Shown: positions 941-61,863 of the stretch, piece by piece | Numbering within the stretch: the stretch's first letter is position 1 | Layout of the letters: each line of letters starts with the position of its first letter | Source of the DNA: Patescibacteria group bacterium | GTDB taxonomy: Bacteria; Patescibacteriota; Patescibacteriia; 2-12-FULL-60-25 | Assembly: GCA_041650955.1 (NCBI GenBank) | Contig: JBAZKG010000003.1 | Coordinates: forward strand, 42,766 to 106,765 | DNA: 64,000 nucleotides | Direction: 5' to 3' | Notes under the pieces: model-generated | Seen by the model: only the letters and a program-made list of their open reading frames with translations | What the model was told of the DNA's origin: nothing | The model's database searches: none | Position numbers and translations under genes: made by a program

Positions 941-947
941 ATGTTGA

Positions 948-1016
948 AGTCGGTGAGTCGGAAGTCGATGAGTCGGTCAGAGTACTGATCGACTCACCGA
1001 CTTCCGACTCACCGAC
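948..1016. repeat. PPE, family B (8-nt unit ~AGTCGGTG)
   Basis: AGTCGGTGAGTCGGAAGTCGATGAGTCGGTCAG / loop AGTA / CTGATCGACTCACCGACTTCCGACTCACCGACT. It lies between the hup terminator and the rny stop codon. Confidence 0.9.
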
Positions 1017-1020
1017 TCTC

Positions 1021-4392: not shown

Positions 4393-4462
4393 TCGTAGGG
4401 GCGATCCGGCGGAATAACGAATTACCTTACAGTATCGTAGGGGCGATCCGCCGGATCGCCCT
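4393..4462. repeat. REP elements upstream of RAYT (one truncated, one complete)
   Basis: CGTAGGGGCGATCCGGCGG (truncated), then CGTAGGGGCGATCCGCCGGATCGCCCT. Both carry the conserved GTAG head typical of REPs. Confidence 0.85.
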
Positions 4463-4535: not shown

Positions 4536-5102
4536 ATGAGCAAACACTTCAAGAGAAAATCGCCACGCCTGCCGACGTATACCTATTCTGAAGAAGGTTG
4601 GTATTTCGTCACGCTTTGCGTTAAAAATAGGCGTCCTATTTTTGGTCGGATTGAAAATGAGAAAATGATTTTGAGTCGAGAGGGGTATCTCGCAAAACAA
4701 GAATGGGTGAATACGTTTCACGTTCGAAAAAATCTTCGAAAAGATTCGTTTATCATAATGCCGGATCACATCCATATTATTATTCATTCGGTAGAAAATG
4801 GCGATCCGGCGGAACAGGGCGATCCGCCGGATCGCCCCTACGATACTGTCGAGTATGAGATTGGCAGAGCGCGTCGTATGATTTCTGGTTCAATTTCCGC
4901 TATCATCGGTCAATATAAATCATTGGTTACGAAACGAATCTGGCGAATGAGTAATGACAGAACGCCTATTTGGCAACGGAGTTTTTATGATCACATCATC
5001 CGAACGGAAAATGATCTTGAAAATCTTCGAGAATATATTCAATTGAATCCTGTAAATTGGCAATTGAAATGGGATCAGAGAAACCAGAATTGTTTTTATT
5101 AA
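4536..5102 (+). CDS. REP-associated tyrosine transposase (RAYT; IS200/IS605 Y1 transposase-like)
   Basis: HUH motif PDHIHIIIH. C-terminal WQRSFYDHIIRTENDLENLREYIQLNPVNW is typical of Y1_Tnp/RAYT proteins. An in-frame REP doublet encodes ENGDPAEQGDPPDRPYD between the HUH motif and the Tyr motif. Confidence 0.85.
   Translation: MSKHFKRKSPRLPTYTYSEEGWYFVTLCVKNRRPIFGRIENEKMILSREGYLAKQEWVNTFHVRKNLRKDSFIIMPDHIHIIIHSVENGDPAEQGDPPDRPYDTVEYEIGRARRMISGSISAIIGQYKSLVTKRIWRMSNDRTPIWQRSFYDHIIRTENDLENLREYIQLNPVNWQLKWDQRNQNCFY
4799..4842. repeat. REP doublet inside the RAYT coding sequence
   Basis: GGCGATCCGGCGGAACAGGGCGATCCGCCGGATCGCCCCTACG, read in frame as GDPAEQGDPPDRPY. Confidence 0.85.
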
Positions 5103-5104
5103 AA

Positions 5105-5130
5105 GGGCGATCCGGCGGATCGCCCCTACG
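5105..5130. repeat. REP element immediately after the RAYT stop (inverted orientation)
   Basis: GGGCGATCCGGCGGATCGCCCCTACG. Confidence 0.85.
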
Positions 5131-5225: not shown

Positions 5226-6116
5226 TCAGGAAGCGTAGGGGCGATCCGGCGGATCGCCTTTCTTCACAATCAACTCCTCAATATTTTCAGGGTTTAATTT
5301 CTCCAACCTCTTCGCCTCCTTCACATCAAACTCGCCAATCCTCGTCCGGCGGAGCGCCGTCAAATATGCGCCGACGTGGAGGGCTTCGCCGATATCGCGG
5401 GCAAGGGATCGGATATAGGTTCCGCTGGAGCAGGAGACATCGAACGACAGCATCGGCCATTCGTATGACGTGATATGCAGATCGTAAATTTTTACATCCT
5501 TCGTCGGCAAAACAACTCCTTCCATTTTTCCTTTTCGTGCCAGTTCATACAATTTTTTTCCTCCAACCTTTTTCGCGCTAAACGCTGGCGCTGTTTGCAC
5601 GTATCCGCCGCGAAATAAATCGAGTGCTTGTTCGACGTCATCTCGCATTGGGGGGATTGCTGATTGCTGATTGCTAATTACTGATTTTGATTTTGAGGAA
5701 TGAGCAATTGGCAATTGGCAATTAGTAATTATTCCTTCTACATCATCCGTATCACTCGTTGCCCCTAACATCGCCGTCGTCTGATATGTTTTATCAAGTC
5801 CGACAAGACCCGTGAGCATCTTTGTTCCCTTATTGATCCCGACGATCAGCAATCCTGTCGCAAACGGATCCAGCGTTCCGGCATGTCCCACACGCCGCGT
5901 CTTCGCAATCCTCCGCACGCGGTCAACCACATCATGGCTCGTCATTCCGGCTGGTTTGTCGATCAGGATGAGGCCGTCAAAAGAGGTGGGTGTAGGGGCG
6001 CACGGCTGTGCGCCCATCTTCGAGTTAGGGGCGTGGGAAGACATGGATGAGAGGGTACTGCATCTTGATAAAAACCTCAAAATGGTGTATGTTCGAATTG
6101 ACGGTGAACGCTTCAA
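5226..6116 (-). CDS. truB: tRNA pseudouridine-55 synthase TruB (start probably ATG 6017 or 6044, not the TTG at 6116)
   Basis: LILIDKPAGMTSHDVVDRVRRI...VGHAGTLDPFATGLLIVG is the TruB catalytic-Asp motif. REP sequence encodes the N-terminal MGAQPCAPT and the C-terminal GDPPDRPYAS. A family-K PPE lies in frame mid-gene. Confidence 0.9.
   Translation of the reverse strand: MKRSPSIRTYTILRFLSRCSTLSSMSSHAPNSKMGAQPCAPTPTSFDGLILIDKPAGMTSHDVVDRVRRIAKTRRVGHAGTLDPFATGLLIVGINKGTKMLTGLVGLDKTYQTTAMLGATSDTDDVEGIITNCQLPIAHSSKSKSVISNQQSAIPPMRDDVEQALDLFRGGYVQTAPAFSAKKVGGKKLYELARKGKMEGVVLPTKDVKIYDLHITSYEWPMLSFDVSCSSGTYIRSLARDIGEALHVGAYLTALRRTRIGEFDVKEAKRLEKLNPENIEELIVKKGDPPDRPYAS
5234..5258. repeat. REP element overlapping the truB 3' end
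   Basis: CGTAGGGGCGATCCGGCGGATCGCC. On the minus strand it is translated as the truB C-terminus ...GDPPDRPYAS. Confidence 0.85.
5656..5731. repeat. PPE-like element, family K (ATTGCTG / GCAATTG units), in frame inside truB
   Basis: ATTGCTGATTGCTGATTGCTAATTACTGATT ... GAGCAATTGGCAATTGGCAATTAGTAATTA. The arms are only partly complementary. The element encodes ITNCQLPIAHSSKSKSVISNQQSAI within TruB. Confidence 0.7.
5991..6014. repeat. REP variant at the truB 5' end
   Basis: GTAGGGGCGCACGGCTGTGCGCCC. It has the same GTAGGGGCG head as the RAYT-flanking REPs but a different palindromic stem. Confidence 0.85.
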
Positions 6117-16154: not shown

Positions 16155-16943
16155 ATGAAAAAGCCGCTCAAATTCGAAGCCATCTCTATCTTCCCGGAAT
16201 CATTCGACTCGTACATGAGCGCGTCGATTCTTGGTCGTGCGCAAAAAAAGAAGCTCGTTTCTTTCAAAGCGCATGATCTTCGAAAATGGACGCACGATGT
16301 CCACAAAACCGTAGACGACAAGCCGTTCGGCGGCGGTCCCGGCATGGTCATGAAGCCGGAGCCTTTCTTTGAAGCGTTGGTTGATCTCAAACTTTTTAAA
16401 AAAGATGGCACTCGAAGAAAGGCCCCACGCCCAACGCCCCACGCCCAACGCCCCAGAATCATCATGACTGCGGCGAATGGAAAAATGTTTACGCATGCGG
16501 ATGCGGTGAGGTTATCGAAATGTCAGCGCGTCGTTTTTTTGTGCGGACGATACGAAGGAATCGACCAGCGCGTGATCGACCGCCTCTGCGATGAATCCTT
16601 CTGCATCGGCCCCTACGTGCTCACAGGCGGCGAATTACCCGCCATGGTGATGATGGACGCGATTTCGCGCCACATCCCGGGCGTGCTTGGGAAAGAGGCA
16701 TCGTTAGAGGAAGAGAGTTGGTCTGACAATAGGAGCGAGGAGCGAGGAGCGAGGAGCGAGAAATCCGACCTACGATCGGAGCCTGTCCCGAGTGCATCCG
16801 AGGGAACCTACGATCTACGCCCCGAATACCCCCAGTACACCCGCCCCGAAGTTTGGCTCGGCATGAAGGTGCCGGAGGTGCTGTTGTCCGGGAATCACAA
16901 GAAGATTAAAGAGTGGAGAGAAGGGATGAGAAAGAAGTCTTAA
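16155..16943 (+). CDS. trmD: tRNA (guanine37-N1)-methyltransferase TrmD carrying two in-frame repeat-derived insertions
   Basis: FEAISIFPESFDSYMSASILGRA, VDDKPFGGGPGMVMKPEP, LCGRYEGIDQRVID and PQYTRPEVW..VPEVLLSGNHKKIKEWR are all TrmD hallmarks. The insertions are at 16421-16454 and 16731-16760. Confidence 0.93.
   Translation: MKKPLKFEAISIFPESFDSYMSASILGRAQKKKLVSFKAHDLRKWTHDVHKTVDDKPFGGGPGMVMKPEPFFEALVDLKLFKKDGTRRKAPRPTPHAQRPRIIMTAANGKMFTHADAVRLSKCQRVVFLCGRYEGIDQRVIDRLCDESFCIGPYVLTGGELPAMVMMDAISRHIPGVLGKEASLEEESWSDNRSEERGARSEKSDLRSEPVPSASEGTYDLRPEYPQYTRPEVWLGMKVPEVLLSGNHKKIKEWREGMRKKS
16421..16454. repeat. Family C tract inside trmD
   Basis: GGCCCCACGCCCAACGCCCCACGCCCAACGCCCC, translated in frame as APRPTPHAQRP. 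Confidence 0.85.
16731..16760. repeat. Family L tract (GAGCGAG units) inside trmD
   Basis: AGGAGCGAGGAGCGAGGAGCGAGGAGCGAG, translated as RSEERGARSE in the TrmD interdomain linker. Confidence 0.85.
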
Positions 16944-19022: not shown

Positions 19023-19103
19023 GGCCATTAGGGAACTAGGCCACTACGCCACTAGGGGAAATTGAATTCCCTTAGTGGCGTAATGGCTTAGCCCCCTAGT
19101 GGC
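19023..19103. repeat. PPE, family G (8-nt unit ~CCACTAGG)
   Basis: GGCCATTAGGGAACTAGGCCACTACGCCACTAGGGG ... TTCCCTTAGTGGCGTAATGGCTTAGCCCCCTAGTGGC. Confidence 0.9.
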
Positions 19104-28696: not shown

Positions 28697-28771
28697 TGGT
28701 AGCTCCAAGGGGAATTGAACCCCTATTAACGGCTTGAAAAGCCGCTGTCCTAACCATTAGACGATGGAGCC
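28697..28771 (-). tRNA. tRNA-Glu (anticodon UUC), CCA encoded
   Basis: Minus strand reads GGCTCCATCGTCTAATGGTTAGGACAGCGGCTTTTCAAGCCGTTAATAGGGGTTCAATTCCCCTTGGAGCTACCA. It folds as a cloverleaf with a 7-bp acceptor stem, anticodon loop TTTTCAA and T-loop GGTTCAATTCC. Confidence 0.9.
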
Positions 28772-28791
28772 TTGTTCAGTTGTGCGGGGCA

Positions 28792-28820
28792 ATGGTAAGG
28801 GAAAATGAGAGGAAAGTCAA
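28792..28820 (-). promoter_or_regulatory. Sigma70-type promoter of tRNA-Glu
   Basis: Minus strand reads TTGACT-17 nt-TACCAT, about 20 nt upstream of the tRNA 5' end. Confidence 0.65.
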
Positions 28821-28821
28821 G

Positions 28822-28928
28822 AATAGGTCTGTATGTCTGTAGGACTGTAGGACTGTAGGTTGCTATTTCTGATGACTTCAGGCAGAGCGACCTACTGTCC
28901 TACAGTCCTACAGACATACAGACCTATT
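28822..28928. repeat. PPE, family A
   Basis: AATAGGTCTGTATGTCTGTAGGACTGTAGGACTGTAGGT ... ACCTACTGTCCTACAGTCCTACAGACATACAGACCTATT. The loop CTGATGACTTCAGGCAGAGCG is homologous to the loop of 376-486. Confidence 0.9.
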
Positions 28929-29388
28929 CTTCATCCCTCACCTTCCTCCGTAACTGCTTGATTTTCGACGTTCTCTCTTTTGCGTCTAGACGGCGCAATT
29001 TTGACGCGCGCGTTGGCTTTGTATCGATACGTTGGATTTCTGGTTTGAGCGCATCACGAACGAATTGGCGAAGCTTGTGGATCGCTTCAATTTTATTTTG
29101 AGCTTGAGACCGTTGATCTTCCGAATCGACAACAAGATAACCGTTTTTATTCGTCGTGAGCTTTGTCATCAATGTCTGCTTTTGCTCATCATCAAAAACA
29201 GACGAGGACATAATTGGCCATTTGACGACGACTTTCGTCTCGCGCTTGTTTACATTCTGTCCGCCCGGACCGGATGATCGGGCGGTTGAAATCTCCAATT
29301 CATTTTCAGGAACTTCGGGAACGGTATGCGGCATATCAAACAATGCATATTTTACGTGAGTATTGATAAAAAGGCGAATATGAGGCAC
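28924..29388 (-). CDS. arfB: Peptidyl-tRNA hydrolase ArfB (class-I release-factor GGQ domain; ribosome rescue)
   Basis: ELEISTARSSGPGGQNVNKRETKVVVKW plus a basic C-terminal tail KPTRASKLRRLDAKERTSKIKQLRRKVR. The start may be ATG 29334 rather than GTG 29388. Confidence 0.85.
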   Translation of the reverse strand: MPHIRLFINTHVKYALFDMPHTVPEVPENELEISTARSSGPGGQNVNKRETKVVVKWPIMSSSVFDDEQKQTLMTKLTTNKNGYLVVDSEDQRSQAQNKIEAIHKLRQFVRDALKPEIQRIDTKPTRASKLRRLDAKERTSKIKQLRRKVRDEE

Positions 29389-29389
29389 A

Positions 29390-29468
29390 GTAAGTTGGTA
29401 AGTCGGTGAGTCGATAAGTCGGTCAGTAGAGAACTCACCGACTCACCGACTTATCGACTCACCGACTT
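29390..29468. repeat. PPE, family B
   Basis: AGTAAGTTGGTAAGTCGGTGAGTCGATAAGTCGGTCAGT / AGAGA / ACTCACCGACTCACCGACTTATCGACTCACCGACTT. Confidence 0.9.
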
Positions 29469-29472
29469 TTCA

Positions 29473-30558
29473 ATGAAATTCACCATCCTCGGTATTGAAA
29501 CCAGCTGCGACGAAACATCCGTCGCTCTTTTGGATGTGGATACGGCGACAAGCGTTCCGACGGTGCGATTGCGCAAGCATTATATTTCAAGCCAGATTAA
29601 GATTCATGCCAAGTTCGGGGGAGTTGTTCCAGAAGTCGCGGCGCGAAGTCATGTGCCGGAAACCGTTGCACTTATTACAAAAGCGCTTGGACGAAAGGGG
29701 TTTGATGCGTTTGACGCAATCGCCGTCACGCGTGGTCCAGGTCTTGCCACAGCACTCCGAGTCGGTATTCATGCCGCGCAAACCATTGCTTGGACGAGTG
29801 GAAAGCCCATTGTCGGCGTGAATCATCTTATGGGGCATTTGGCGAGCGCATGGTTGCTCGCGGAAAATCGCAAGCACTGGGCATACCCGTCGCTTGCCTT
29901 GCTTGTTTCCGGCGGACATACGGAACTCGTTTTGCTCGAGGGGTTGAATTTTGCACGCGTGATCGGCTCGACGCGCGATGATGCGGCCGGAGAAGCGTTT
30001 GATAAAAGCGCAAAACTTCTCGGCCTTGGATATCCCGGCGGACCCAAGCTTTCAAAACTCGCCGTCGGCGGAAACGATCAAGCCTATCATTTTCCGCGTC
30101 CCATGTTGCACGACCCGTCGCTCGACTTCAGCTTTTCAGGTTTGAAAACATCAATCAGACAGGAAGTAGAGAGTCGGTCAGTCGGTGAGTCGGTAAGTCG
30201 GTCAGCACGAAATTCACCGACTCACCGACTCACCGACTTACCGACTTTGTCGGATCTCTGCGCCTCGATTCAACGCGCCATCATCGACGTCCTCATCGCG
30301 AAGACGATACGCGCGGCAAAGGAGTATCCGGTCAAAAATATTCTTCTTGTCGGCGGCGTATCGGCGAATCAACAGCTTCGCGAAGATTTGGCGTCAGCTG
30401 TAAAAAAAGAATTGCCGTCCGTCCGTTTCTTAAAACCCGCTCTCCCATTTTGCACGGATAATGGCGCAATGATTGCCGCGGCCGGCGCATGGCGTATCAT
30501 GAAAGGGGAGAAGGATGACTGGCGGTCTTTAGAAGTTGATCCAGAGTTGGATATATAA
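29473..30558 (+). CDS. tsaD: tRNA N6-adenosine threonylcarbamoyltransferase TsaD (Kae1/Qri7 family) with in-frame PPE insertion
   Basis: ILGIETSCDETSVALL, VNHLMGHL, LLVSGGHTEL and GYPGGPKL are all TsaD hallmarks. 26 extra residues ESRSVGESVSRSARNSPTHRLTDLPT are encoded by a family-B hairpin. Confidence 0.95.
   Translation: MKFTILGIETSCDETSVALLDVDTATSVPTVRLRKHYISSQIKIHAKFGGVVPEVAARSHVPETVALITKALGRKGFDAFDAIAVTRGPGLATALRVGIHAAQTIAWTSGKPIVGVNHLMGHLASAWLLAENRKHWAYPSLALLVSGGHTELVLLEGLNFARVIGSTRDDAAGEAFDKSAKLLGLGYPGGPKLSKLAVGGNDQAYHFPRPMLHDPSLDFSFSGLKTSIRQEVESRSVGESVSRSARNSPTHRLTDLPTLSDLCASIQRAIIDVLIAKTIRAAKEYPVKNILLVGGVSANQQLREDLASAVKKELPSVRFLKPALPFCTDNGAMIAAAGAWRIMKGEKDDWRSLEVDPELDI
30171..30246. 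repeat. PPE, family B, inside tsaD
   Basis: GAGTCGGTCAGTCGGTGAGTCGGTAAGTCGGTCA / GCACGAAATT / CACCGACTCACCGACTCACCGACTTACCGACT. It is in frame with no stop codon. Confidence 0.92.
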
Positions 30559-30617
30559 GTCCACAGTCCACAGACTGCAGTCGTAAGTTATCGGACTGTA
30601 GTCTATGGACTGTGGAC
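30559..30617. repeat. PPE, family A variant (GTCCACAG units)
   Basis: GTCCACAGTCCACAGACTGCAGTC / GTAAGTTATC / GGACTGTAGTCTATGGACTGTGGAC, between tsaD and tsaE. Confidence 0.9.
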
Positions 30618-30630
30618 CCCTCTTTAACCT

Positions 30631-31062
30631 ATGAACTGGTTCATCCCCACCACCACCGATTGGAATTCCGTCGCGCGCGAAATCGTCGCAAAGTTAAACG
30701 ACGGTGATATTTTGACATTGAGCGGTCCGCTTGGCGCGGGAAAGACGACCTTTGTCCAGGCGTTGGCGCAGGCGCTCGGTTCGGAGAAGCTTCCAAAAAG
30801 TCCGACGTTTTCCATGTTGCGAACCTATTCGATTTCTGGAAACGGACTTTCGCGACTTCTGCATGTGGATGCGTATCGCATTGAAAATGAAATTGATTTG
30901 ATCACGCTTGATCTTGATGAAGAATTGCTTATCCCCGGAACCATTCTCGTCATCGAGTGGCCGGAGCATATCCCGGCGTGGCTCGAAACGCGCCCGCATC
31001 TTGCGCTGACGATTGAGATTGATGGTGATGGGCGGCGCGCAAGCATGGAAAATAGAAGTTAG
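30631..31062 (+). CDS. tsaE: tRNA threonylcarbamoyladenosine biosynthesis ATPase TsaE
   Basis: LSGPLGAGKTTFVQALAQALG (P-loop), SPTFSMLRTY, HVDAYR. Confidence 0.9.
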   Translation: MNWFIPTTTDWNSVAREIVAKLNDGDILTLSGPLGAGKTTFVQALAQALGSEKLPKSPTFSMLRTYSISGNGLSRLLHVDAYRIENEIDLITLDLDEELLIPGTILVIEWPEHIPAWLETRPHLALTIEIDGDGRRASMENRS

Positions 31063-31123
31063 AATTCAGAAGTTAGAAGTTAGAATATGATTTCTAACTT
31101 CTAACTTCTGAATTCTAACTTCT
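31052..31123. repeat. PPE, family D, same subfamily (copy 3 of 3)
   Basis: TAGAAGTTAGAATTCAGAAGTTAGAAGTTAGAAT / ATGA / TTTCTAACTTCTAACTTCTGAATTCTAACTTCT. It supplies the last 3 codons and the stop of tsaE (ENRS*). Confidence 0.92.
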
Positions 31124-31130
31124 TTCTTAA

Positions 31131-31165
31131 ATGGCAAAACGCTTCGTTCACTGAACGAAGCGTTT
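31131..31165 (-). terminator. Intrinsic terminator of the 31195-31494 gene
   Basis: Minus strand reads AAACGCTTCGTTCA-G-TGAACGAAGCGTTT followed by TGCCATTT. Confidence 0.7.
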
Positions 31166-31194
31166 AGCTGTTGAGGTTAAGGTGAAAGGGCGTG

Positions 31195-31494
31195 TTAGAG
31201 GGAGTGTTGTATCCCTGATTTTGGTTCATCTGTCTTTTCATCTGAACTGCTCTCTGACTCTGATTTGGTTTTCCCCCACTCAATACGTCGTAGTGCGGTC
31301 ACATAATCTTCACGATCATCATGAGACATTGCCAAAAGAAATTGTTTGATTTCTCCTGGGTTGTCTGGGACCATCGGATCGAGCATAACGCTTCCATCTC
31401 GCCTTTGGAGATAGGAACGGCCTCGTTGACGTATAATGCAAGGGAAGGGACTGTGTTCAAAGTCAAAGGATGGTTCTTGTGCCAATGCGGTCAT
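31195..31494 (-). CDS. Hypothetical acidic protein
   Basis: ATG 31494 preceded by CAAAGGAGGTGCTC, TTGACA-17-TACAGT promoter upstream. 99 aa (MTALAQEPSFDFEHSPFP...). Confidence 0.6.
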   Translation of the reverse strand: MTALAQEPSFDFEHSPFPCIIRQRGRSYLQRRDGSVMLDPMVPDNPGEIKQFLLAMSHDDREDYVTALRRIEWGKTKSESESSSDEKTDEPKSGIQHSL

Positions 31495-31514
31495 GAGCAC
31501 CTCCTTTGAGCGGG

Positions 31515-31543
31515 ACTGTACGCGATTTTGCAAATTTTGTCAA
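31515..31543 (-). promoter_or_regulatory. Sigma70-type promoter
   Basis: Minus strand reads TTGACA-17 nt-TACAGT. Confidence 0.7.
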
Positions 31544-31552
31544 TACAAAAAA

Positions 31553-31625
31553 AGCTTACGGCTGACAGCTTACGGCTGACGGCAAGATGTAATTGCCGTC
31601 AGCCGTAAGCTGTCAGCCGTAAGCT
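31553..31625. repeat. PPE, family I (14-nt unit AGCTTACGGCTGAC)
   Basis: AGCTTACGGCTGACAGCTTACGGCTGACGGCAA / GATGTAA / TTGCCGTCAGCCGTAAGCTGTCAGCCGTAAGCT. The 33-nt arms are perfectly complementary. Confidence 0.92.
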
Positions 31626-31627
31626 AA

Positions 31628-33445
31628 TTACGCCCCTGGTTGGGAAATGTCTTCGTTTTCCACCGCAATGGCGGCGACGCGGAGGACTTCTTCTACGGAA
31701 GTGAGCCCTTCAGTCGCCTTTAATAATCCGTCTTGTACCATGGTAATCATGCCCTGCTTAAAGGCGAGTTCATCGATGTGTGATGCGCTCACTTGTTCTG
31801 CCAGAATGGCCTCTTCCACTTCTTTATTCATGATAAATATTTCATAAATGCCGACGCGTCCTTTGTATCCAAGCCCATTGCACGCCTTACAATTCGCGGC
31901 TGGATTTGGGGGAGCGAAGAAGGACATCTTAGAGAGGTCTGCTTTGATGCCAGCGTTCGGCGGAATGTGATTCAACTCTTCTTTGACTTGCTCCATCAGC
32001 CCGGGATCAAGAGTGACTGGTACGCGGCATTCGGGACAGAGCTTGCGCACAAGGCGCTGGCCGATAATGGCATTCAAGGACGGTGCAAGCAGGAATGGTT
32101 TGACGCCCATGGAAATAAAGCGCGGAATTGCGCCGGAGGCGGAGTTTGTGTGAATCGTCGAAATGACAAGATGTCCGGTGAGCGCGGCTTGAATGGAAAT
32201 TTCCGCCGTTTCAAGATCGCGGATTTCTCCGACCATTACGATGTCCGGGTCCTGGCGAAGAATGGAGCGCAAACCAAGCGCGAACGTGTATCCTTTATCG
32301 TGCTGGATCTGGCTCTGATTGATTCCCTGAAGTTTATACTCCACCGGATCTTCAAGCGTAATGATTTTAACTTCCGGCGTATTCAGTTTATTGAGAATCG
32401 CGTAGAGCGTTGTTGTTTTTCCGGATCCGGTCGGACCGGTTGTAACAATCATGCCGTTCGGCTTTTCAATTTCACGCCGCAAATCTTCGAGTGCTTTGCC
32501 GCGCAGTCCGAGATTTTCAAATTCAAGTGCAATGGATTTCGGGCGAAGCAGGCGCATGACAACCGATTCTCCGTATGCCGTCGGTAAAAATGAAACGCGG
32601 ATATCCAGCTTTTCATCCGTGAGATAAATGGTGATGCGTCCGTCTTGCGGCACATCGGTGATATTGATTTTGACGCCGGAGAGCAGTTTGAGGCGGCTGA
32701 TAATTTGTTTCCATGACTCGCGCGCGAGCGAAGCGACATCTTGGAGAATCCCGTCGAGGCGAAACCGGATTTTAACGTCTTCCTCTTCCGCTTCCACGTG
32801 AATATCCGAGGCATTGCTGGTGAGCGCGGCTCCGAGTATGAGCGTGACAACATCCGTGGTTGAGACTTCAGTGATTCGCTTTTGCAAATCGCGGAAATTG
32901 CTGATCTCTTTGGCGTATTTTTCCAAATCTTTTTCTTCAATCCGGTAGCCATATGTCACTTCTCGTATTTCCGGAAGGGCGTCGTACAGCCGTTCTGCGC
33001 TGGCGAATGACGCATCGGAAACGAGATAGAGCGTTCCATGTCCGTATTGCTGTTTTGAGATGCGAGTCATGACCTCGTCGACGTCCGGCGACGGTTTTGT
33101 TGTTGCAAAGCGGAGCTCGTCTCCAAGGTGGAGGAAGCACATGACATGTTTTGCGCTTGCTTCTTCGTGCGGGATAAGTGAAAGAGCTTCCGGAGCAATT
33201 GGAAAACCGGAAAGATTCACATAAGGGAGTCCGGTCTTTTCCGCCTGCTTTTTTGCAAGTTCTTCGAGTTCGTTCAGCTTGATCTGCTGCATTTTTTCTT
33301 CCAGCTTTTCCTGCGAGCTTTTTTTCGAATCTGATTTTGACGTTTTTGCAACGATTTTTTTCACCGGCGTACTCGAAACATCCGAGGCGGGAGCCGCTCC
33401 GGATTTTTTCATCAAGTCTTCTATGGAAGTTGCGCGATTCGGCAT
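31628..33445 (-). CDS. pilB: Type IV pilus assembly / type II secretion ATPase (PilB/GspE family)
   Basis: 605 aa. T2SSE N-domain, Walker A GPTGSGKTTT, Asp box LRQDPDIVMVGEIRD, His box, and a C-terminal tetracysteine CPECR...CKACNGLGYKGR. Confidence 0.93.
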   Translation of the reverse strand: MPNRATSIEDLMKKSGAAPASDVSSTPVKKIVAKTSKSDSKKSSQEKLEEKMQQIKLNELEELAKKQAEKTGLPYVNLSGFPIAPEALSLIPHEEASAKHVMCFLHLGDELRFATTKPSPDVDEVMTRISKQQYGHGTLYLVSDASFASAERLYDALPEIREVTYGYRIEEKDLEKYAKEISNFRDLQKRITEVSTTDVVTLILGAALTSNASDIHVEAEEEDVKIRFRLDGILQDVASLARESWKQIISRLKLLSGVKINITDVPQDGRITIYLTDEKLDIRVSFLPTAYGESVVMRLLRPKSIALEFENLGLRGKALEDLRREIEKPNGMIVTTGPTGSGKTTTLYAILNKLNTPEVKIITLEDPVEYKLQGINQSQIQHDKGYTFALGLRSILRQDPDIVMVGEIRDLETAEISIQAALTGHLVISTIHTNSASGAIPRFISMGVKPFLLAPSLNAIIGQRLVRKLCPECRVPVTLDPGLMEQVKEELNHIPPNAGIKADLSKMSFFAPPNPAANCKACNGLGYKGRVGIYEIFIMNKEVEEAILAEQVSASHIDELAFKQGMITMVQDGLLKATEGLTSVEEVLRVAAIAVENEDISQPGA

Positions 33446-33451
33446 GGTGAG

Positions 33452-33545
33452 GAAGTCGATAAGTCGGTTAGTCGGTGAGTCGATGAGTGCTCCGACCGAC
33501 GGTATGAATACTTACCGACTCACCGACTTATCGACTGACCGACTC
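33452..33545. repeat. PPE, family B
   Basis: GAAGTCGATAAGTCGGTTAGTCGGTGAGTCGATGAGT ... CTTACCGACTCACCGACTTATCGACTGACCGACTC. Confidence 0.9.
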
Positions 33546-33550
33546 TATTT

Positions 33551-45271: not shown

Positions 45272-46819
45272 TTATTTTTTGCCTTCCTCCAACCTCGGAA
45301 ACAACGCCGTCGCTGTTCCAAGTTTTGTCCCGGCGGGTAATCCTCCCCACGTTTTTATCTTCTCGAATGATATTTCATTCACGTTTTGACCAAGAAGAGT
45401 CAAAATTGCATCCGACGTTTGCGGCATGAAGGGACGGATCATCCAGCCGATGTGGCGGATGGCTTCGGCGAGCGCAAAGAGCACGCGATCAAGATCCGCG
45501 TCTTTATTTTCTTTTGCAAGCGCCCACGGCTTTTCATCATCAATATATTTATTCGCATCGCGAATAAGCGTCCATGCGGTTTCGAGCGCTTGATCAAAAC
45601 GCCAGTCGTTCATAAAGGTTTGATACGTCGCCCAGAGCGCGTCCACGTCCCACGGTGCGGTCGGAGAAACTCCCACAACGCCTGTGCGATATTTTTCGAT
45701 CATGCTTGCGACGCGAAGAACAAGATTGCCGAGATTGTTCGAGAGATCGGCTTCAAAGCGGGCAACAAAACGATCCTGATCGTATTCACCGTCGCCGTTA
45801 AACGGAATTTCTCGAAGAAGAAGATAGCGAGTCGCTTCAACGCCGAATGTCGTCAAAAGCATATCAGGCTCAAGCACATTGCCAAGCGTTTTGCTCATCT
45901 TGCCACCGCCTTTTGCAAGAATCCATCCATGAACCGCAACTTGTTTCGGAACATCCACGCCAGCGGCCATTAACATTGCCGGCCAAAGCACGGTATGAAA
46001 ACGATTGATCTCTTTACCGATGACATGATGAACCGTGGGCCAGTATGTTGCGACTTTTTTTTCATCTTTCGGAAACCCGAGCGCGCTCAAATAGTTTACA
46101 AGCGCATCGAACCACACATAGATATTCTGCGAGTCATCACCCGGAACCGGAATGCCCCATGGCACGTGCTTGGAAGAGCGCGATACGCTGATATCCTCGA
46201 GTCCGCCTTTCACAAGCTGGATCGCTTCATTGAATTTTGTTTCCGGCGTTGCAAAATTCGGATTCTTTTCGTAGATTGCGAGCAAGTCTTTTTCAAATGC
46301 CGTGAGCTTAAAGAAATAATTCTCTTCTTCGATTTGTTCCGGCGTCAAATTCGGATGATCCAGACATTTTCCGTCAACAAGATCTTTTTCCGTCTTGAAC
46401 GATTCGCATCCGACGCAGTACAAGCCGGTATATTTTTTCGTATACAAGAACGGCCCGCGCGGATCTTTCTTTCCGTTCTCGATGACGCGGTTCCAAAATG
46501 CCGTGACTGTTTCTTTATGCCGGTCTTCGGTGGTTCGAATAAAGTCCGTATAGGAAATCGAAAGTCTCGAAGCGAGGTCTTGATACTGCTTCGCAATACC
46601 GTCAACAAACGCTTTTGGTTCAAGCTTTGCTTCCGCGGCCTTGCGCGCAATCTTTTGTCCGTGCTCATCCATGCCCGTCACAAACACAACATCATTTCCC
46701 AGCAAACGCTGATACCGCGCCATGGCATCGGTATAGATGTATTCAAGGGCAAACCCGATATGCGGCGCTCCGTTCGCATACGCAATCGCGGTCGTGATGT
46801 AGTACGGCTGTTTGGACAT
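45272..46819 (-). CDS. metG: Methionine--tRNA ligase (short form, no C-terminal tRNA-binding domain)
   Basis: ITTAIAYANGAPHIGF (HIGH), KMSKTLGN (KMSKS), MetRS connective-peptide and anticodon-binding regions. 515 aa. Confidence 0.96.
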   Translation of the reverse strand: MSKQPYYITTAIAYANGAPHIGFALEYIYTDAMARYQRLLGNDVVFVTGMDEHGQKIARKAAEAKLEPKAFVDGIAKQYQDLASRLSISYTDFIRTTEDRHKETVTAFWNRVIENGKKDPRGPFLYTKKYTGLYCVGCESFKTEKDLVDGKCLDHPNLTPEQIEEENYFFKLTAFEKDLLAIYEKNPNFATPETKFNEAIQLVKGGLEDISVSRSSKHVPWGIPVPGDDSQNIYVWFDALVNYLSALGFPKDEKKVATYWPTVHHVIGKEINRFHTVLWPAMLMAAGVDVPKQVAVHGWILAKGGGKMSKTLGNVLEPDMLLTTFGVEATRYLLLREIPFNGDGEYDQDRFVARFEADLSNNLGNLVLRVASMIEKYRTGVVGVSPTAPWDVDALWATYQTFMNDWRFDQALETAWTLIRDANKYIDDEKPWALAKENKDADLDRVLFALAEAIRHIGWMIRPFMPQTSDAILTLLGQNVNEISFEKIKTWGGLPAGTKLGTATALFPRLEEGKK

Positions 46820-47342: not shown

Positions 47343-47366
47343 GGGCGCACAGCTGTGCGCCCCTAC
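47343..47366. repeat. REP variant
   Basis: GGGCGCACAGCTGTGCGCCCCTAC (reverse orientation). It overlaps the stop codon of the GT4 gene. Confidence 0.85.
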
Positions 47367-48577
47367 AAATGCTGTTCCTCCAACACATCTCTCAACGCAC
47401 CAACCCATAGTTGCGGTTTTGACGGGGGAACGAATAATGTCCCGGTCGGTGCGGTTTCGGGGAGCGCGCCAGTGCTGGATGCGATGCAGGGGCATCCGAA
47501 GCGCGCGGCTTCATGAAGTGGCAGGCCATAGCCTTCGTACCAGGAAGGATAGAGGAAGCAGGAAGCGGTGGCGTAGAGGGTGTCGAGGTCGAGGTCGGTG
47601 ATGTGGGAAAAAGGAGCGAGGAGCGACCTGCCCGCCACGCAAGCCGAGATGAGCGAGGCGTTGCAGGCGGGGGAGCGAGGAGCGAGAAGAGAATGTATAA
47701 AATCGCGCGCATCAAAAATAAACTCGCTCCTCGCTCCTTCCCCCTTCGCTGACTCCTTCGCTGAAGCTACGGAGTCCAGGGAAGCTACGGGGGACACACG
47801 CTCCTCGCTCCTACATTCTCTTTTCGGCGCGCCAACAATTACAAGCTTCAAATTCGCGTACTTCGTTTCTTTTCGAAGTTGTTCAACGGCGAGGATGGCA
47901 GTGCGGATGTTTTTACGCGTGTTGCCGCCGCCCATGGCCAGAATAAAAGGGGCGTGGGGCGTGGGGCGTGGGGCGTGGTGAAGAAATTCTGAATCTAAAA
48001 GTTCAGTTGGGCGGATGCGAGGAGTGAATATCCTAATTTTTTTTTCTTCCCACGCCCCACGCCCCACGCCCCACGCCCTTATCATTCGTTTGACGTCTCG
48101 TTTTGTCACCTCACTCACACATATCAACGTATCCGCGCGGCAGATCAAACGCTTGCAATGAACGGCGCGATGCCAGAGGCGGCTTTTGAAGGAAAACCAC
48201 GAGGGCTCGATCAAAAAAGAGAGGTCGTGAAGGAATAGGGTGTATGGGATGGTGATGCGCCCGGTAAAACCGAGATTGCCGATGAGGAGCTTGTCGAACG
48301 CGAGCCCGGTCTTCTTTGTTGTCACACGGTCAAGCGATACAAGATTCAGCATCGATAAACCGCTCCATAATTTATTCGGCATGCGGATATGCGCGTGCGT
48401 GACGCGCGGATGCGTCCGGAACGGATCGGGGAGTTTTGGAATATTCCACCCGGTTGTAACAAAAACAAAATTTACTTCCGTTTGATCAACGATTCTTTGC
48501 AACCAATCAAAAACAACCGCCGCAACGCCGCGGCTGTCTGCATCGACCAAAGGTCGTGCATCGACAAGTACGTTCAT
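47363..48577 (-). CDS. Glycosyltransferase family 4 (GT-B) carrying two large in-frame palindromic insertions
   Basis: GT4 C-terminal core LYATASCFLYPSWYEGYGLPLHEAARFGCPCIASSTGALPE. The ORF stays open through a family-C hairpin (47949-48079) and family-L tracts (47612-47811). Confidence 0.8.
   Translation of the reverse strand: MNVLVDARPLVDADSRGVAAVVFDWLQRIVDQTEVNFVFVTTGWNIPKLPDPFRTHPRVTHAHIRMPNKLWSGLSMLNLVSLDRVTTKKTGLAFDKLLIGNLGFTGRITIPYTLFLHDLSFLIEPSWFSFKSRLWHRAVHCKRLICRADTLICVSEVTKRDVKRMIRAWGVGRGAWEEKKIRIFTPRIRPTELLDSEFLHHAPRPTPHAPFILAMGGGNTRKNIRTAILAVEQLRKETKYANLKLVIVGAPKRECRSEERVSPVASLDSVASAKESAKGEGARSEFIFDARDFIHSLLAPRSPACNASLISACVAGRSLLAPFSHITDLDLDTLYATASCFLYPSWYEGYGLPLHEAARFGCPCIASSTGALPETAPTGTLFVPPSKPQLWVGALRDVLEEQHL
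47671..47737. repeat. PPE, family L (GAGCGAG units), inside the GT4 gene
   Basis: GGGAGCGAGGAGCGAGAAGAG ... AAACTCGCTCCTCGCTCC. Additional half-tracts lie at 47612-47626 and 47799-47811. Confidence 0.85.
47949..48079. repeat. PPE, family C, inside the GT4 gene (131 nt)
   Basis: GGGGCGTGGGGCGTGGGGCGTGGGGCGTGGTGAAGAA ... TTCTTCCCACGCCCCACGCCCCACGCCCCACGCCC. Translated on the minus strand as GVGRGAWEEKK...HHAPRPTPHAP. Confidence 0.9.
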
Positions 48578-53089: not shown

Positions 53090-53202
53090 GGTTCTACGAA
53101 TATACGAATGATACGAATCGGCGAATGACGTGCTACGAAAGCATTCGTAAATTCGTACCATTCGTAATTCGCTGATTCGTATCATTCGTATATTCGTAGA
53201 CC
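53090..53202. repeat. PPE, family H (long loop with extra TTCGTA units)
   Basis: GGTTCTACGAATATACGAATGATACGAATCGGCGAAT ... ATTCGCTGATTCGTATCATTCGTATATTCGTAGACC. Confidence 0.9.
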
Positions 53203-53240: not shown

Positions 53241-53701
53241 ATGCCAAGACCGAACGATAAGCCGAATTTTGTCCCCCGTCGTCCCCCCGTAGCTTTACGC
53301 GAAGGGGGGGTCTGGGAGGGCAATCATCTATCTGGGATGATCATTGCTGATCACCTCGTTGCGAGCGACCAGTCTCCCGACGTACGTCGGGATCTTGCTC
53401 TTGCACCGGAGAGGGCTTGCCGCGCTACGTTGTTACCAACGCATGAGAGATGTAACAGATGTCTTTCGACACCCATACCATCTCACTTTTCACTTTTCCC
53501 CCGATGGACATCGGGGTAGTATTGTCTCTGTGGCGCTTTCCCTGGGTTTATAGTGAACGTCGGGTACGTATCCTTTCGTTCTCTACCATATCCCGGCCGT
53601 CGTTAACGGCTCTCCATGAACCCCGATGGACATCGGGGAACGGTGTTCGGACTTTCCTCCCCGATGGACATCGGGGCGATTGCCTGTTCGACCTTGGCTT
53701 C
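53241..53701 (-). ncRNA. rnpB: RNase P RNA, bacterial type A (~460 nt)
   Basis: Minus strand starts GAAGCCAAGGTCGAACAGGCAATCGCC...GAGGAAAGTCCGAACAC (P1-P4) and contains GCCACAGAGACAA, GAAAAGTGAAAAGTG and GGTAACAACG...GGTGCAAGAGCAAG. It ends ...GACAAAATTCGGCTTATCGTTCGGTCTTGGC, which pairs back to the 5' end. Compare E. coli GAGGAAAGUCCGGGCUCC and ACAGAACCCGGCUUAUCGGUCAG. Confidence 0.92.
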
Positions 53702-53743: not shown

Positions 53744-53836
53744 AAGTCAATAAGTCAACGAGTCGATAAGTCAACAAGTGCACTGACTGACGGTTTGAGA
53801 ACTCGTTGACTTGTTGACTATTTGACTTGTTGACTT
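53744..53836. repeat. PPE, family B variant (AGTCAACA units)
   Basis: AAGTCAATAAGTCAACGAGTCGATAAGTCAACAAGT ... ACTCGTTGACTTGTTGACTATTTGACTTGTTGACTT. Confidence 0.9.
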
Positions 53837-60391: not shown

Positions 60392-60943
60392 ATGATCAAA
60401 CCTCGACTTCTCCTCCATGTCTGTTGCGGCGTCTGTTCCGCTTATATCCCGGAGCTTTTGGCTCCGGATTTTGACGTAACCATGTATTACGATAATCCGA
60501 ATATTTATCCGGCAGAGGAATTTCGAAAGCGAGCCGATGCGGCGAAAGAAATGGCAAAACGGTATGGCATGGCCTTTGTCGAAGTTCCGCAAAATGTTGA
60601 ATCATGGAATCTGGCAGTCGTAGGACATGCGACGGATCGGGAAAACGGCGAGCGATGCCGCTTATGCATGGTTCATCGCTTGGACAGCGCATTCGCATAC
60701 GCAAAAGAACATCAATTCGACGCCGTTGCGTGCACGCTCGGCGTCAGTCGTCGCAAGCATATCGACATGGTGAACGCGATCGGCAAACAATTGTCAGACG
60801 CGTACGGCATTCCATTCCTCGATCGCGATTGGAGAAAAAACGGCGGAGAAGATGAATCCCAGCGCCGCGCCCGCGAGTACGGCATCTACCGGCAGGAGTA
60901 TTGCGGGTGCATTTATTCGATGAAGAAGTCGGTTAGTCGATAA
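60392..60943 (+). CDS. queH: Epoxyqueuosine reductase QueH (DUF208)
   Basis: LLLHVCCGVCSAY, ERCRLCMVHRL and QEYCGC form the Cys pattern of QueH. 183 aa. The last 6 codons (KKSVSR) and the stop lie in a PPE. Confidence 0.88.
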   Translation: MIKPRLLLHVCCGVCSAYIPELLAPDFDVTMYYDNPNIYPAEEFRKRADAAKEMAKRYGMAFVEVPQNVESWNLAVVGHATDRENGERCRLCMVHRLDSAFAYAKEHQFDAVACTLGVSRRKHIDMVNAIGKQLSDAYGIPFLDRDWRKNGGEDESQRRAREYGIYRQEYCGCIYSMKKSVSR

Positions 60944-61006
60944 GTCGGTGAGTCGGTTAGTAAATGCAATTACTCACCGACTCACCGACTTATCGACTTC
61001 CCGACT
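60925..61006. repeat. PPE, family B
   Basis: GAAGTCGGTTAGTCGATAAGTCGGTGAGTCGGTTAGTAA / ATGCAA / TTACTCACCGACTCACCGACTTATCGACTTCCCGACT. Confidence 0.9.
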
Positions 61007-61029
61007 GTTCTTCCTGTATCATCCCTCCC

Positions 61030-61863
61030 ATGAAACGCATTGCCACGCCTCTCCTCATCGTGACCGTCCTCTTCATGGGCTGGGGTTGCGTTCGCGGCGG
61101 AGCGACCCAACCCGTCGTTTCTTCTCGCTCCTCGCTCCTCGCTCCTCGCTCCTCATCTACGACGACCGCCGAAGCCGCAATACCTTTCACGTGGTCATCC
61201 ATCGGCGATGGCGCGGAACGCGGAGAAAAGACGATTCCGAACGGCGAATATACGGCGCATCTTATTGCGTACCGTTTTGATCCGAAGAAGTATGATTTTC
61301 ATTTTGCGCAAACAGATCAGCCAAAACTTGTGAGCGCATGGATGCAGGAAAATTCAACAGCTTCGTTTATCATCAACGGCGTGTATTTTCAGGAGGATCA
61401 TTCTCCGGCTGGGATGTTGAGGATTGATAATACAAATGTCGGTTCACGGAGTTTTGATGCAAAAAAATCAGGGTTGATTATATTCGGTTCTGACGGGAAT
61501 CGGATTATGGATACGTCCGTCAACAACGTGAAAGATCCAAAAGCTTCAAACGAAGCGCAGAGCTATCCGTTCTTGATCAAGAATGGGTCTCCAGCGATAC
61601 AGGATGACAGCGGTCTTGTCGCGCGCCGTTCATTTATCGGAATAGATATAGACGGAAAAATTATTTTCGGCGCCTATGTCGGCGGAGAAATCAGTTTATC
61701 GTCTCTGTCTCAACTCCTCGCGACGCTTCCCGTCACATGGACGAACGCAATCAATCTGGACGGGGGAGCATCAACGGGATTTTCGGCAAATATCAGCGGT
61801 TATCAAGAACTTGAGGATTCGTACGTCGATATTCCGAATGTAATTGAAGTAGAGAAGCGCTAA
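61030..61863 (+). CDS. Phosphodiester glycosidase-family (DUF2233) lipoprotein
   Basis: ATG 61030. MKRIATPLLIVTVLFMGWGC lipobox-like signal, and NLDGGASTG near the C-terminus. It contains a family-L tract encoding SSRSSLLAPRSSS. Confidence 0.78.
   Translation: MKRIATPLLIVTVLFMGWGCVRGGATQPVVSSRSSLLAPRSSSTTTAEAAIPFTWSSIGDGAERGEKTIPNGEYTAHLIAYRFDPKKYDFHFAQTDQPKLVSAWMQENSTASFIINGVYFQEDHSPAGMLRIDNTNVGSRSFDAKKSGLIIFGSDGNRIMDTSVNNVKDPKASNEAQSYPFLIKNGSPAIQDDSGLVARRSFIGIDIDGKIIFGAYVGGEISLSSLSQLLATLPVTWTNAINLDGGASTGFSANISGYQELEDSYVDIPNVIEVEKR
61125..61154. repeat. Family L tract (CTCGCTC units) inside the DUF2233 gene
   Basis: CTCGCTCCTCGCTCCTCGCTCCTCGCTCCTC, one arm only, in the linker after the signal peptide. 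Confidence 0.85.

Follow-up and report, generated by a model that had tools for sequence, protein, structure and literature searches.

The DNA analysed here is a 64,000-nucleotide stretch of contig JBAZKG010000003.1 from a Patescibacteria group bacterium (hereafter the window). Near its middle lies tsaD, with arfB upstream on the opposite strand (divergent) and the partner gene tsaE downstream. The coding sequence of tsaD contains, in frame, a hairpin built of short tandem units, and this hairpin is one copy of a repeat family found elsewhere in the window. Relatives of the host protein bear the names Parcubacteria or Patescibacteria, which places the genome in the Candidate Phyla Radiation. 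The features of the locus are the following.

29473..30558, + strand: tsaD, a single continuous open reading frame (ORF) of 361 aa, hosting the in-frame element
30169..30246, + strand: in-frame segment of 78 nt, residues 233-258, ESRSVGESVSRSARNSPTHRLTDLPT
30172..30202, + strand: left arm of the hairpin, four 8-nt units, AGTCGGTC AGTCGGTG AGTCGGTA AGTCGGT, encoding SRSVGESVSR
30203..30215, + strand: apical loop, CAGCACGAAATTC
30216..30246, + strand: right arm, ACCGACTC ACCGACTC ACCGACTT ACCGACT, complementary to the left arm
30631..31062, + strand: tsaE, the partner gene downstream, with a hairpin of another family (30559-30617) between it and tsaD

The host ORF is TsaD, the tRNA t6A37 threonylcarbamoyltransferase subunit with the ASKHA-type TsaD/Kae1 fold, and it is otherwise intact. 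It matched the equivalog model TIGR03723 over residues 5-341 with 364 bits (cut-off 296.1), and its product matched solved TsaD structures among PDB homologues with E about 1e-76. The AlphaFold2 model had a mean pLDDT of 90.9; in Foldseek it aligned with E. coli/Salmonella TsaD (3zet_B, 4wq5_A) at TM-scores of 0.85 when normalised to the query and 0.91-0.93 when normalised to the target. We aligned 48 close TsaD relatives with 56-88% identity. The metal-binding residues H118 and H122 (His-x3-His) and D329, as well as the D-stem motif F221-S-G-L-K225 (FSFSGLK), were invariant columns among them.

An earlier examination of the letters and their ORFs (the sequence-only reading) had placed a 76-nt hairpin at 30171-30246, in frame in tsaD and read through without a stop, between the conserved TsaD segments ...FSGLKTSIRQEV and LSDLCASIQRAIIDVL. 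The letters at these positions match its quotation exactly, the frame is open as it said, and ESRSVGESVSRSARNSPTHRLTDLPT is flanked in the product by these two segments; one peptide that would span a junction is LTDLPTLSDLCASIQR. The hairpin is an inverted repeat with arms of 31 nt each that are 94% complementary (29 of 31 pairs) around a 13-nt spacer. Each arm consists of four head-to-tail 8-nt units, AGTCGGTN in the left arm and its complement in the right. The two-unit pattern AGTCGGTNAGTCGGT, with at most one mismatch, occurred 27 times in the window, compared with 0.03 expected from shuffles. An 88-nt stretch containing the element folded as RNA with -55 kcal/mol (z = -9.9; 0 of 200 shuffles as good) and as DNA with -32.5 kcal/mol (z = -8.2; no shuffle as good). 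Just one of the six reading frames through the element is open, and it is the frame in use. No target-site duplication was found at the tsaD copy, where the flanks ...GGAAGTAGAG / element / TTGTCGGATC... contain no direct repeat, or at its siblings. A search of the whole window with Rfam 15 at the gathering threshold gave only RNase P RNA and one tRNA, with no match to any hairpin element. A scan of positions 28700-31700 for intrinsic terminators did not report the tsaD hairpin; with this result, a 13-nt loop and the tail TTTGTCGG, we rejected the terminator reading for the tsaD copy.

Further copies of the same family had been listed at 29390, 33452 and 60925. All three were recovered and two more were added, at 946-1019 and, in diverged form, at 53744-53836, so that the AGTCGGTN family has six copies in the window.

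946..1019, + strand: sibling, intergenic between an HU-like gene and the RNase Y gene
29390..29470, + strand: sibling between the divergent arfB and tsaD, ending 2 nt before the tsaD ATG
33452..33546, + strand: sibling, intergenic
53744..53836, + strand: diverged relative of the family with AAGTCAAY units, intergenic
60925..61008, + strand: sibling at a gene boundary

In the five siblings outside tsaD, about 6 of the 30 frames (about one in five) are open. No Shine-Dalgarno-like sequence is visible between the upstream hairpin and the tsaD start codon (29468-29475), and several other hairpins likewise adjoin start codons.

The family belongs to a larger class. A scan of the window for inverted repeats whose arms measure 18 nt or more gave 37, nearly all of them intergenic, and Tandem Repeats Finder (TRF) added further 7- and 8-nt arrays; a count by hand from both lists gave approximately 45 elements in 64 kb, in approximately 14 sequence families. 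Their common design is about four tandem 7-8-nt units, a short loop, and the complementary units, with units such as AGAAGTT, GTAGCTA, CTGTAGGA, ACGAATNN, GGGGCGT, AGGAGCG, GCCACTAG, GATTGCT, GTTGCGT, and AGTCGGTN. The hairpins occupy convergent, divergent and tandem intergenic spaces, often abutting start or stop codons. Because they occur in all gene orientations, including divergent ones, they cannot all be terminators. Irregular units recur between distant copies of a family (for example TAGAAGTTAGAATTCAGAAGTTAGAAGTTAGAA at 26852, 27848 and 31054), and this speaks for their having been copied from a master sequence. Judged by eye, the copies within a family keep one + strand orientation whatever the direction of the neighbouring genes (six AGTCGGTN, six AGAAGTT and three ACGAAT copies), and the purine-rich arm comes first in most hairpins. 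The apex is also similar across unit families, ...GAA / GATGCAA, GATGTAA, ATTGAA, TATGAT or TCGGAT / TTC..., at the hairpins at 19024, 20582, 25862, 27848, 31054, 31553, 60927 and others; this similarity hints at a common origin or a recognition feature across families. Viral contigs searched for three AGTCGGTN units contained plain tandem arrays and no hairpins of the AGTCGGTN family, and thus gave no evidence for a phage origin.

To follow the tsaD copy through related genomes, we compared it with its closest available relative, locus L001 (SRR22388087, an independent assembly; TsaD protein P0002, 88% amino-acid identity). L001 carries the same element at the same codons, in frame and with no indel, which rules out an assembly artefact. 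The sequence-only reading had allowed for an assembly error or for a split or inactive gene. Neither applies here: the L001 element is diverged and still in frame at the same codons, and tsaD is a continuous ORF that keeps the catalytic His118, His122 and Asp329. Between the window and L001, dN was 0.082 for the rest of tsaD and 0.158 for the element, whereas dS was 1.68 for the rest and 0.34, five-fold lower, for the element; the corresponding dN/dS values were 0.049 and 0.46. Identity at third codon positions was 48% in the rest of the gene vs 77% in the element (Fisher p = 0.007), and amino-acid identity was 90% vs 69% (p = 0.006). Two inner stem pairs had changed on both sides from G-C to A-T, that is, in a compensatory manner. 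All four left-arm units of L001 are identical (AGTCGATC), with the same G-to-A difference and the same eighth base, and such identical changes are the signature of homogenisation between units, not of independent mutation. The rest of tsaD is clearly functional and under strong purifying selection, and the divergence between the window and L001 is old. Because the element combines a low dS with a less conserved peptide and compensatory pairs, these comparisons indicate that it is maintained as nucleic acid and not as protein, the peptide being left to drift. Conservation of this kind would not be predicted for a purely passive passenger.

Traces of the element extend beyond this pair. At the same site L002 (71% identity) has a shortened, partly decayed remnant of the same family, GAGTCGGGA...TCCCGACTTCCCGAC, and the loop peptide of P0012, RSADQPISRSANSSTDRLIDSST, corresponds to the AGTCGGTN family at the peptide level. 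The lineages of the window and of L001 inherited the tsaD copy from their common ancestor, and the decayed L002 copy suggests that it was in tsaD earlier still. A scan of metagenome contigs with the TsaD protein returned distant or partial matches only, and among the matches listed for genome contigs with the TsaD alignment most were distant Proteobacteria.

The alignment of the 48 relatives, with a neighbour-joining tree built without the loop, was used to place the insert in the protein. The loop between SGLKT and DLCAS has 13-18 residues in many relatives and is typically basic (e.g. ...VEAQPSVTRGKKRS; PSVKKGKKR); in other relatives it has 20-39 residues of unrelated sequence. In the tree the short loop was scattered over many clades, and the long loops fell in separate groups. 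By this alignment the 26-residue segment is lineage-specific, and the many orthologues with 13-18 residues have no homologous segment, a point that the sequence-only reading had singled out for checking. Its figure of about 26 added residues holds for what the element encodes but not for the change in length, since the net gain over an uninterrupted loop is approximately 15 aa. Part of the basic loop of the ancestor has thus given way to the peptide that the element encodes.

In the AlphaFold2 model a helix at 224-240 is followed by a disordered stretch with pLDDT below 50 at 242-251 and by a second helix at 256-284. The left arm is thus predicted to lengthen helix alpha7, with the remainder forming a disordered loop, and in the alignment to solved structures the insert starts approximately 2 residues before the end of the alpha7 equivalent. 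In T. maritima TsaD, alpha7 comprises A210-E223, and the first turn, F207SFSGLK213, contacts the tRNA D-stem (PMC13276492). The insert site is variable and, by these indications (pLDDT, secondary structure and the published T. maritima complex), exposed, in agreement with the variable surface loop proposed from the sequence. It is not, however, functionally remote from the tRNA substrate, because it directly follows the D-stem-contacting helix alpha7. Five TsaD relatives from the Candidate Phyla Radiation (CPR), P0009, P0041, P0099, P0105 and P0038, have further lineage-specific inserts in two other loops, near residue 25 (e.g. APLRPSGFGGQAGK) and near residue 77 (e.g. LRPPYQGGQKLPPDKGDRGG); at the protein level these look repeat-derived.

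The same TsaD loop carries other repeats in other relatives.

L104 (P0006, 73% identity): GCTTACGG/CTGACGG hairpin, of a family also intergenic in the window at 31553; -54 kcal/mol, z -6.0
L093 (P0026): periodic hairpin of the CGTCGTC type; -81 kcal/mol, z -8.2
L095 (P0080): long palindrome of another kind; -66 kcal/mol, z -7.5
L090 (P0007): ACGCTCT array with a single arm; fold not significant
L094 (P0101): short hairpin resembling a repetitive extragenic palindrome (REP); z -1.8, not significant
L091: uninterrupted loop; no significant fold

For L002, L089 and L092 the z values at this site were between 0 and -2.7. The loop peptide of P0023, MPDARCPMPGHKGIGHRASADA, fits (ATGCCCG)n plus its complement, as judged from the peptide alone. 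At least five repeat families, that of the window's tsaD and at least four others, have occupied this loop. Either random insertions survive here because the loop is permissive, or hairpins already in place attract others or are overwritten by them. The tsaD-tsaE spacer offers a parallel observation: it contains a GTCCACA-family hairpin in the window (30559-30617) and one of a different family (AGTTAGTAGTTTGTAG...) in the 88%-identical L001 (1181-1243), which shows that families turn over at orthologous intergenic sites. In more distant relatives (L002 and L089) the spacer hairpin is absent and the genes abut or overlap.

The sequence-only reading had presented tsaD as the host of an in-frame element, which it is; it is not the only such gene in the window. 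Four other ORFs contain elements or single arms in frame.

5652-5730, - strand: truB element in ORF 5226-6116, a degraded GATTGCT/GCAATTG hairpin encoding approximately 25 residues (ITNCQLPIAHSSKSKSVISNQQSAI)
16420-16455 and 16731-16760, + strand: trmD arrays in ORF 16155-16943, two in-frame single arms
47363-48577, - strand: GT1 glycosyltransferase ORF with two complete hairpins in frame, 47949-48078 and 47612-47738
60964-61863, + strand: ORF of the phosphodiester glycosidase (Pfam NAGPA) family with the array (CTCGCTC)4 at 61121-61154, in an N-terminal linker, SRSSLLAPRSS

The inserted residues of TruB have little or no counterpart in M. tuberculosis TruB, and the element splits the Pfam TruB_N match in two. 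In TrmD the GCCCCAC/GCCCAAC array makes up a 16-residue insert, and (AGGAGCG)4 is part of approximately 30 residues inserted in the linker between the domains when the protein is compared with the solved TrmD 3ky7; neither region gives a better fold than its shuffles (z about 0), and the half-element of the NAGPA-family ORF does not fold either (z about 0). The first hairpin of the GT1 ORF, (GGGGCGT)4 ...70 nt... (ACGCCCC)4, folds with -90 kcal/mol (z -13), and the second, AGGAGCG/CTCGCTC, with -68 kcal/mol; as one functional gene this ORF is putative. An exhaustive HMMER search with the 30-aa tsaD segment gave one significant match, the protein P0121 (623 aa) of another organism, which contains two in-frame copies of the AGTCGGTN family, TLVGESVSRS...PTYRLTDLPT and SRLVGKSVSRSVEITHRLTDLPTNRLPT. 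We call P0121 PriA-like on scores below the NCBIfam cut-offs. A word-indexed protein search with an idealised 41-aa form of the insert peptide gave no candidates, probably owing to its low complexity. Among the other genes of the window, methionyl-tRNA synthetase (45272-46819, - strand) has its Pfam match in two stretches and may carry an insert. The RNase P RNA (class A, 163 bits; 53242-53695, - strand) is 454 nt long against a model of 367 positions and may hold extra sequence; an ACGAAT-family hairpin (53093-53200) lies directly beside it.

Which families enter genes is related to their stop codons. In family tallies made by hand, none of approximately 26 elements from families with stop-containing units was intragenic, compared with 8 of approximately 20 from stop-free families (Fisher p = 5e-4). 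Because the units are 7 or 8 nt long and these lengths are not multiples of 3, a stop-containing unit would hit a stop in every frame. A bias toward stop-free families is what purifying selection on translated insertions would produce, and the presence of only stop-free families in genes argues against excision or ribosomal bypass.

One gene of the window is a candidate for a role in spreading repeats. Near one end lies an ORF resembling the REP-associated tyrosine transposases (RAYTs), flanked by a palindrome of its own.

4536-5102, + strand: RAYT-like Y1 (IS200-type) transposase ORF; NF047646 74 bits, PF01797 27 bits
4395-4413, 4437-4462, 4795-4813, 4816-4842, 5104-5130 and 5234-5261: copies of the GTAG palindrome

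The NF047646 score (E 1e-20) is below the NCBIfam cut-off of 80; the ORF has the HUH-type H-I-H motif and is weakly similar to TnpA-REP of E. coli (4er8). The GTAG-tagged palindrome GTAGGGGCGATCCGSCGGATCGCCCCTAC is present in four full and two half copies within approximately 900 bp around the gene and nowhere else in the window. One copy is in frame inside the RAYT-like ORF (GDPPDRPY), and truB ends in another, which provides its final codons and its stop (KKGDPPDRPYAS*). Pfam scans of 54 ORFs, which covered the 64-kb window except for four ORFs near its 3' end, revealed no transposase beyond this Y1 gene.

The explanation that we favour, and that we regard as highly probable, is that a dispersed non-coding hairpin repeat became lodged in the tsaD coding sequence and is read through by the ribosome. 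Its persistence would depend on several properties. The length of 78 nt keeps the frame; as 8 is not a multiple of 3, each arm would be read in all three phases, and the AGTCGGTN unit is free of stops in every phase if its eighth base is suitable, as it is in the tsaD copy. The site is the tip of the alpha7-loop-alpha8 helical hairpin of TsaD, where relatives tolerate 13-39 residues. The product would be a hydrophilic segment that lengthens alpha7 and continues as a disordered loop, a peptide presumably made and tolerated and not useful. Elements would spread by a copy-and-insert or conversion process, after which purifying selection would remove all but the stop-free, in-frame copies in permissive loops. 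The hairpin itself would be kept by concerted evolution, through slippage of units or conversion from arm to arm or copy to copy, and not by a function in tsaD expression.

Several points weigh against this explanation. Our case for translation of the insert is drawn from the open frame and the avoidance of stops, and the family tallies in the Fisher test were made by hand. No filled and empty pair of sites with exact boundaries was found among the relatives, and the tsaD copy has no target-site duplication, so that insertion, as opposed to growth in situ, rests on membership in the family. The insert may alter tRNA binding instead of being neutral, because the loop follows the D-stem helix and the uninterrupted loops are strongly basic. 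Finally, the five-fold synonymous deficit could also reflect selection for a functional hairpin, and so could the loop hairpins of relatives such as L093 that have few other hairpins at their sampled loci.

These last points lead to the main rival, in which selection keeps the hairpin as a cis-acting element for the expression of tsaD (a translational pause between parts of the enzyme, an RNase III-type processing site, or a DNA structure), retained because it regulates tsaD-tsaE output, with the peptide as a by-product. Conservation in nucleotides and not in protein, the two compensatory pair changes, and the 31-bp stem at -55 kcal/mol are what such a function would leave behind, as are stable hairpins of at least three unrelated families at one TsaD loop in different lineages, among them L093 with only two other hairpins at its sampled locus. 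The families are nevertheless scattered through intergenic DNA in all gene orientations, and the site is decayed or without a hairpin in close relatives (L002, L089 and L092 with z of 0 to -2.7; none in L091). The other in-frame copies include half-elements without a fold (trmD and the NAGPA-family ORF), and conversion from other genomic copies accounts for the low dS equally well. We therefore consider a cis-acting function unlikely, and an origin in place unlikelier again. According to the latter, replication slippage would have lengthened a short motif in a hypervariable loop and template switching would have turned it into a palindrome, in the manner of a palindromic microsatellite, with no pre-existing element being inserted. 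The arms are indeed tandem arrays, the four identical L001 units (AGTCGATC) are of the kind that slippage homogenises, single-arm arrays are present in genes, and a target-site duplication is missing. What this origin does not explain is that five other AGTCGGTN copies, likewise with four units per arm, are present in these 64 kb, that the family occurs twice in frame in the PriA-like protein of another organism, and that irregular units are common to distant loci, independent birth of one sequence at many loci being improbable. Ribosomal bypassing has models in the mitochondrial 'byp' elements and T4 gene 60, and a very stable hairpin inside an ORF brings to mind a segment that is absent from the mature protein, either cut from the mRNA or skipped. 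If the segment were removed or bypassed, its frame would not have to stay open, but it is open in the window, in L001 and, at the peptide level, in P0012; the variable eighth bases avoid stops and only stop-free families are found in genes. Since both the frame and its freedom from stops are conserved, splicing and ribosomal bypass were rejected, and we give them very little credence. An assembly artefact or a decaying tsaD pseudogene is barely credible: the source organism is, to judge by its relatives and their sources, uncultured, and repeats can mislead assemblers, but independent assemblies from other samples have the same family at the same site, dN/dS is 0.049 at a dS of 1.68, the catalytic residues are conserved, and the fold is predicted confidently.

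The remaining alternative concerns how the elements spread and is compatible with the explanation that we favour, as a sub-hypothesis. The periodic hairpins might be unusual repeats of the REP/REPIN type, mobilised as single-stranded DNA by the RAYT-like Y1 transposase, which would have delivered the tsaD copy as well. A gene of this kind is present in the window, and the single + strand orientation seen by eye in each family would fit a mechanism linked to the replication strand. Apart from the score below the cut-off, this reading has to contend with a flanking repeat that is a different, non-periodic GTAG palindrome confined in the window to the neighbourhood of the RAYT-like gene, and with a tsaD element that has neither GTAG nor CGTC at its foot. 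The 6.6-fold enrichment of GTAG in the hairpins is unspecific, since other TAG-containing tetramers are equally enriched, and approximately 14 unrelated unit sequences are hard to square with one sequence-specific enzyme. We consider mobilisation by this enzyme improbable, to about the same degree as a cis-acting function, and the link between the RAYT-like gene and the periodic hairpins is only a lead.

Among known systems, the Rickettsia palindromic elements (RPEs) had been named as the precedent for palindromes inserted in frame, and the comparison is apt as a description of behaviour. RPEs (Ogata et al. 2000, 2002) are approximately 100-150 bp long and are described, in the passages of a later paper that deal with them, as encoding a conserved peptide (PMC10969869). 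As summarised there, RPEs resemble the elements of the window in being palindromic repeats that are dispersed, in several families, through one small genome; in both, a sizeable fraction sits within unrelated housekeeping genes without breaking the frame and is read through, at sites that the protein fold can accommodate, and orthologues inherit the copies (PMC10969869). Two properties of RPEs were found here: a dispersed multicopy palindrome, with six family copies and approximately 45 elements of the class in 64 kb, and in-frame insertion with an open ORF in tsaD, truB, trmD, the GT1 gene, and the PriA-like protein of a relative. The differences are as clear. The tsaD element is approximately 76 bp of 7-8-nt tandem units, whereas the RPE passages of that paper mention no arms of short units (PMC10969869). 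Its peptide has a period of 8 residues, the units being read in all three phases, its host belongs to the Parcubacteria/CPR and not to Rickettsia, and in the TsaD of relatives one family takes the place of another at the same codons. By this comparison the tsaD element would be one that behaves like an RPE and is not to be filed as an RPE, being set apart by size, build and lineage.

REPs are imperfect palindromes of 20-40 nt with a conserved GTAG or CGTC foot, extragenic by definition and associated with RAYTs (PMC3116915; PMC3733652). Like them, the elements described here are short, hairpin-forming and abundant in intergenic DNA, and a RAYT-like gene with GTAG palindromes is in the same window. 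In contrast to REPs and REPINs, the tsaD element, at 75 nt, is twice as long, has periodic 31-nt arms, is untagged and intragenic, and belongs to a family other than the palindrome that flanks the RAYT-like gene. Within 30172-30246 there were 0 occurrences of GTAG/CTAC, and no CGTC/GACG was seen by reading; the foot is AGTC...GACT. Intragenic MITEs (transposable elements of the miniature inverted-repeat kind), such as ERIC, BOX and others, are likewise small non-autonomous repeats that can fuse in frame with host ORFs (PMC10969869). MITEs differ in having terminal inverted repeats around a non-palindromic core, target-site duplications, and related insertion sequences, none of which was seen for the tsaD element, with 54 ORFs of the window scanned for transposases.

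Organelle genomes provide a looser parallel. Yeast mitochondrial GC clusters and the double-hairpin elements of Allomyces are hairpin repeats of organelles, and some organelle repeats are found within coding or rRNA genes. Short repeats that form hairpins and multiply in compact genomes have also been reported, as far as the relevant passages of these sources go, from sponge mitochondria (PMC2800124) and as the 'palindromic microsatellite' of Fusarium, which by its name joins microsatellite-like repetition with palindromy (PMC7218506). These are eukaryotic organelles, and the unit lengths and compositions given in those passages are different; the corresponding part of the Fusarium paper makes no mention of in-frame protein insertion (PMC7218506). 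A further comparison is with bacteria. The short tandemly repeated repetitive (STRR) heptamers and small dispersed repeats of Nostoc and other cyanobacteria are intergenic, consist of 7-nt tandem units, and come in several families per genome, and very small elements of this kind insert into hairpins and into one another. We know of no description of STRR sequences as four-unit inverted arrays that form one long hairpin, or as frequent in-frame inserts in housekeeping genes. A full-text search of the CPR/Patescibacteria literature, with most subscription journals outside its scope, found no description of such elements and returned only unrelated TIGR-Tas papers. The element type appears to be undescribed, as the sequence-only reading had supposed.

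In the passages cited above, in-frame palindromic repeats in housekeeping genes are treated as an unusually high-frequency feature of Rickettsia (PMC10969869). The elements of the window would be a second, structurally different case, in the CPR. We propose tentatively, and at somewhat less than an even chance, that the periodic-arm hairpins are a class of DNA in CPR bacteria that propagates itself and has not been described before, preserved by concerted evolution, which repeatedly colonises or overwrites permissive sites (the TsaD alpha7 tip and loops of TruB, TrmD and the PriA-like protein) and is a steady source of new surface segments in core proteins. The stop-laden families may serve as intergenic insulators of translation or transcription. 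The elements split domain matches (TruB_N and the TrmD methyltransferase domain), and they could create spurious ORFs or confuse the assembly and annotation of CPR genomes. They also present a sequence that is seemingly kept as a nucleic-acid hairpin while, judging from the open frame, it is translated, and a natural experiment on the capacity of protein loops to accommodate 15-25 additional residues, the TsaD loop having been struck by at least five families. CPR bacteria have very small genomes and proteins with unexplained lineage-specific inserts, and for some of these inserts the element offers a source at the level of DNA.

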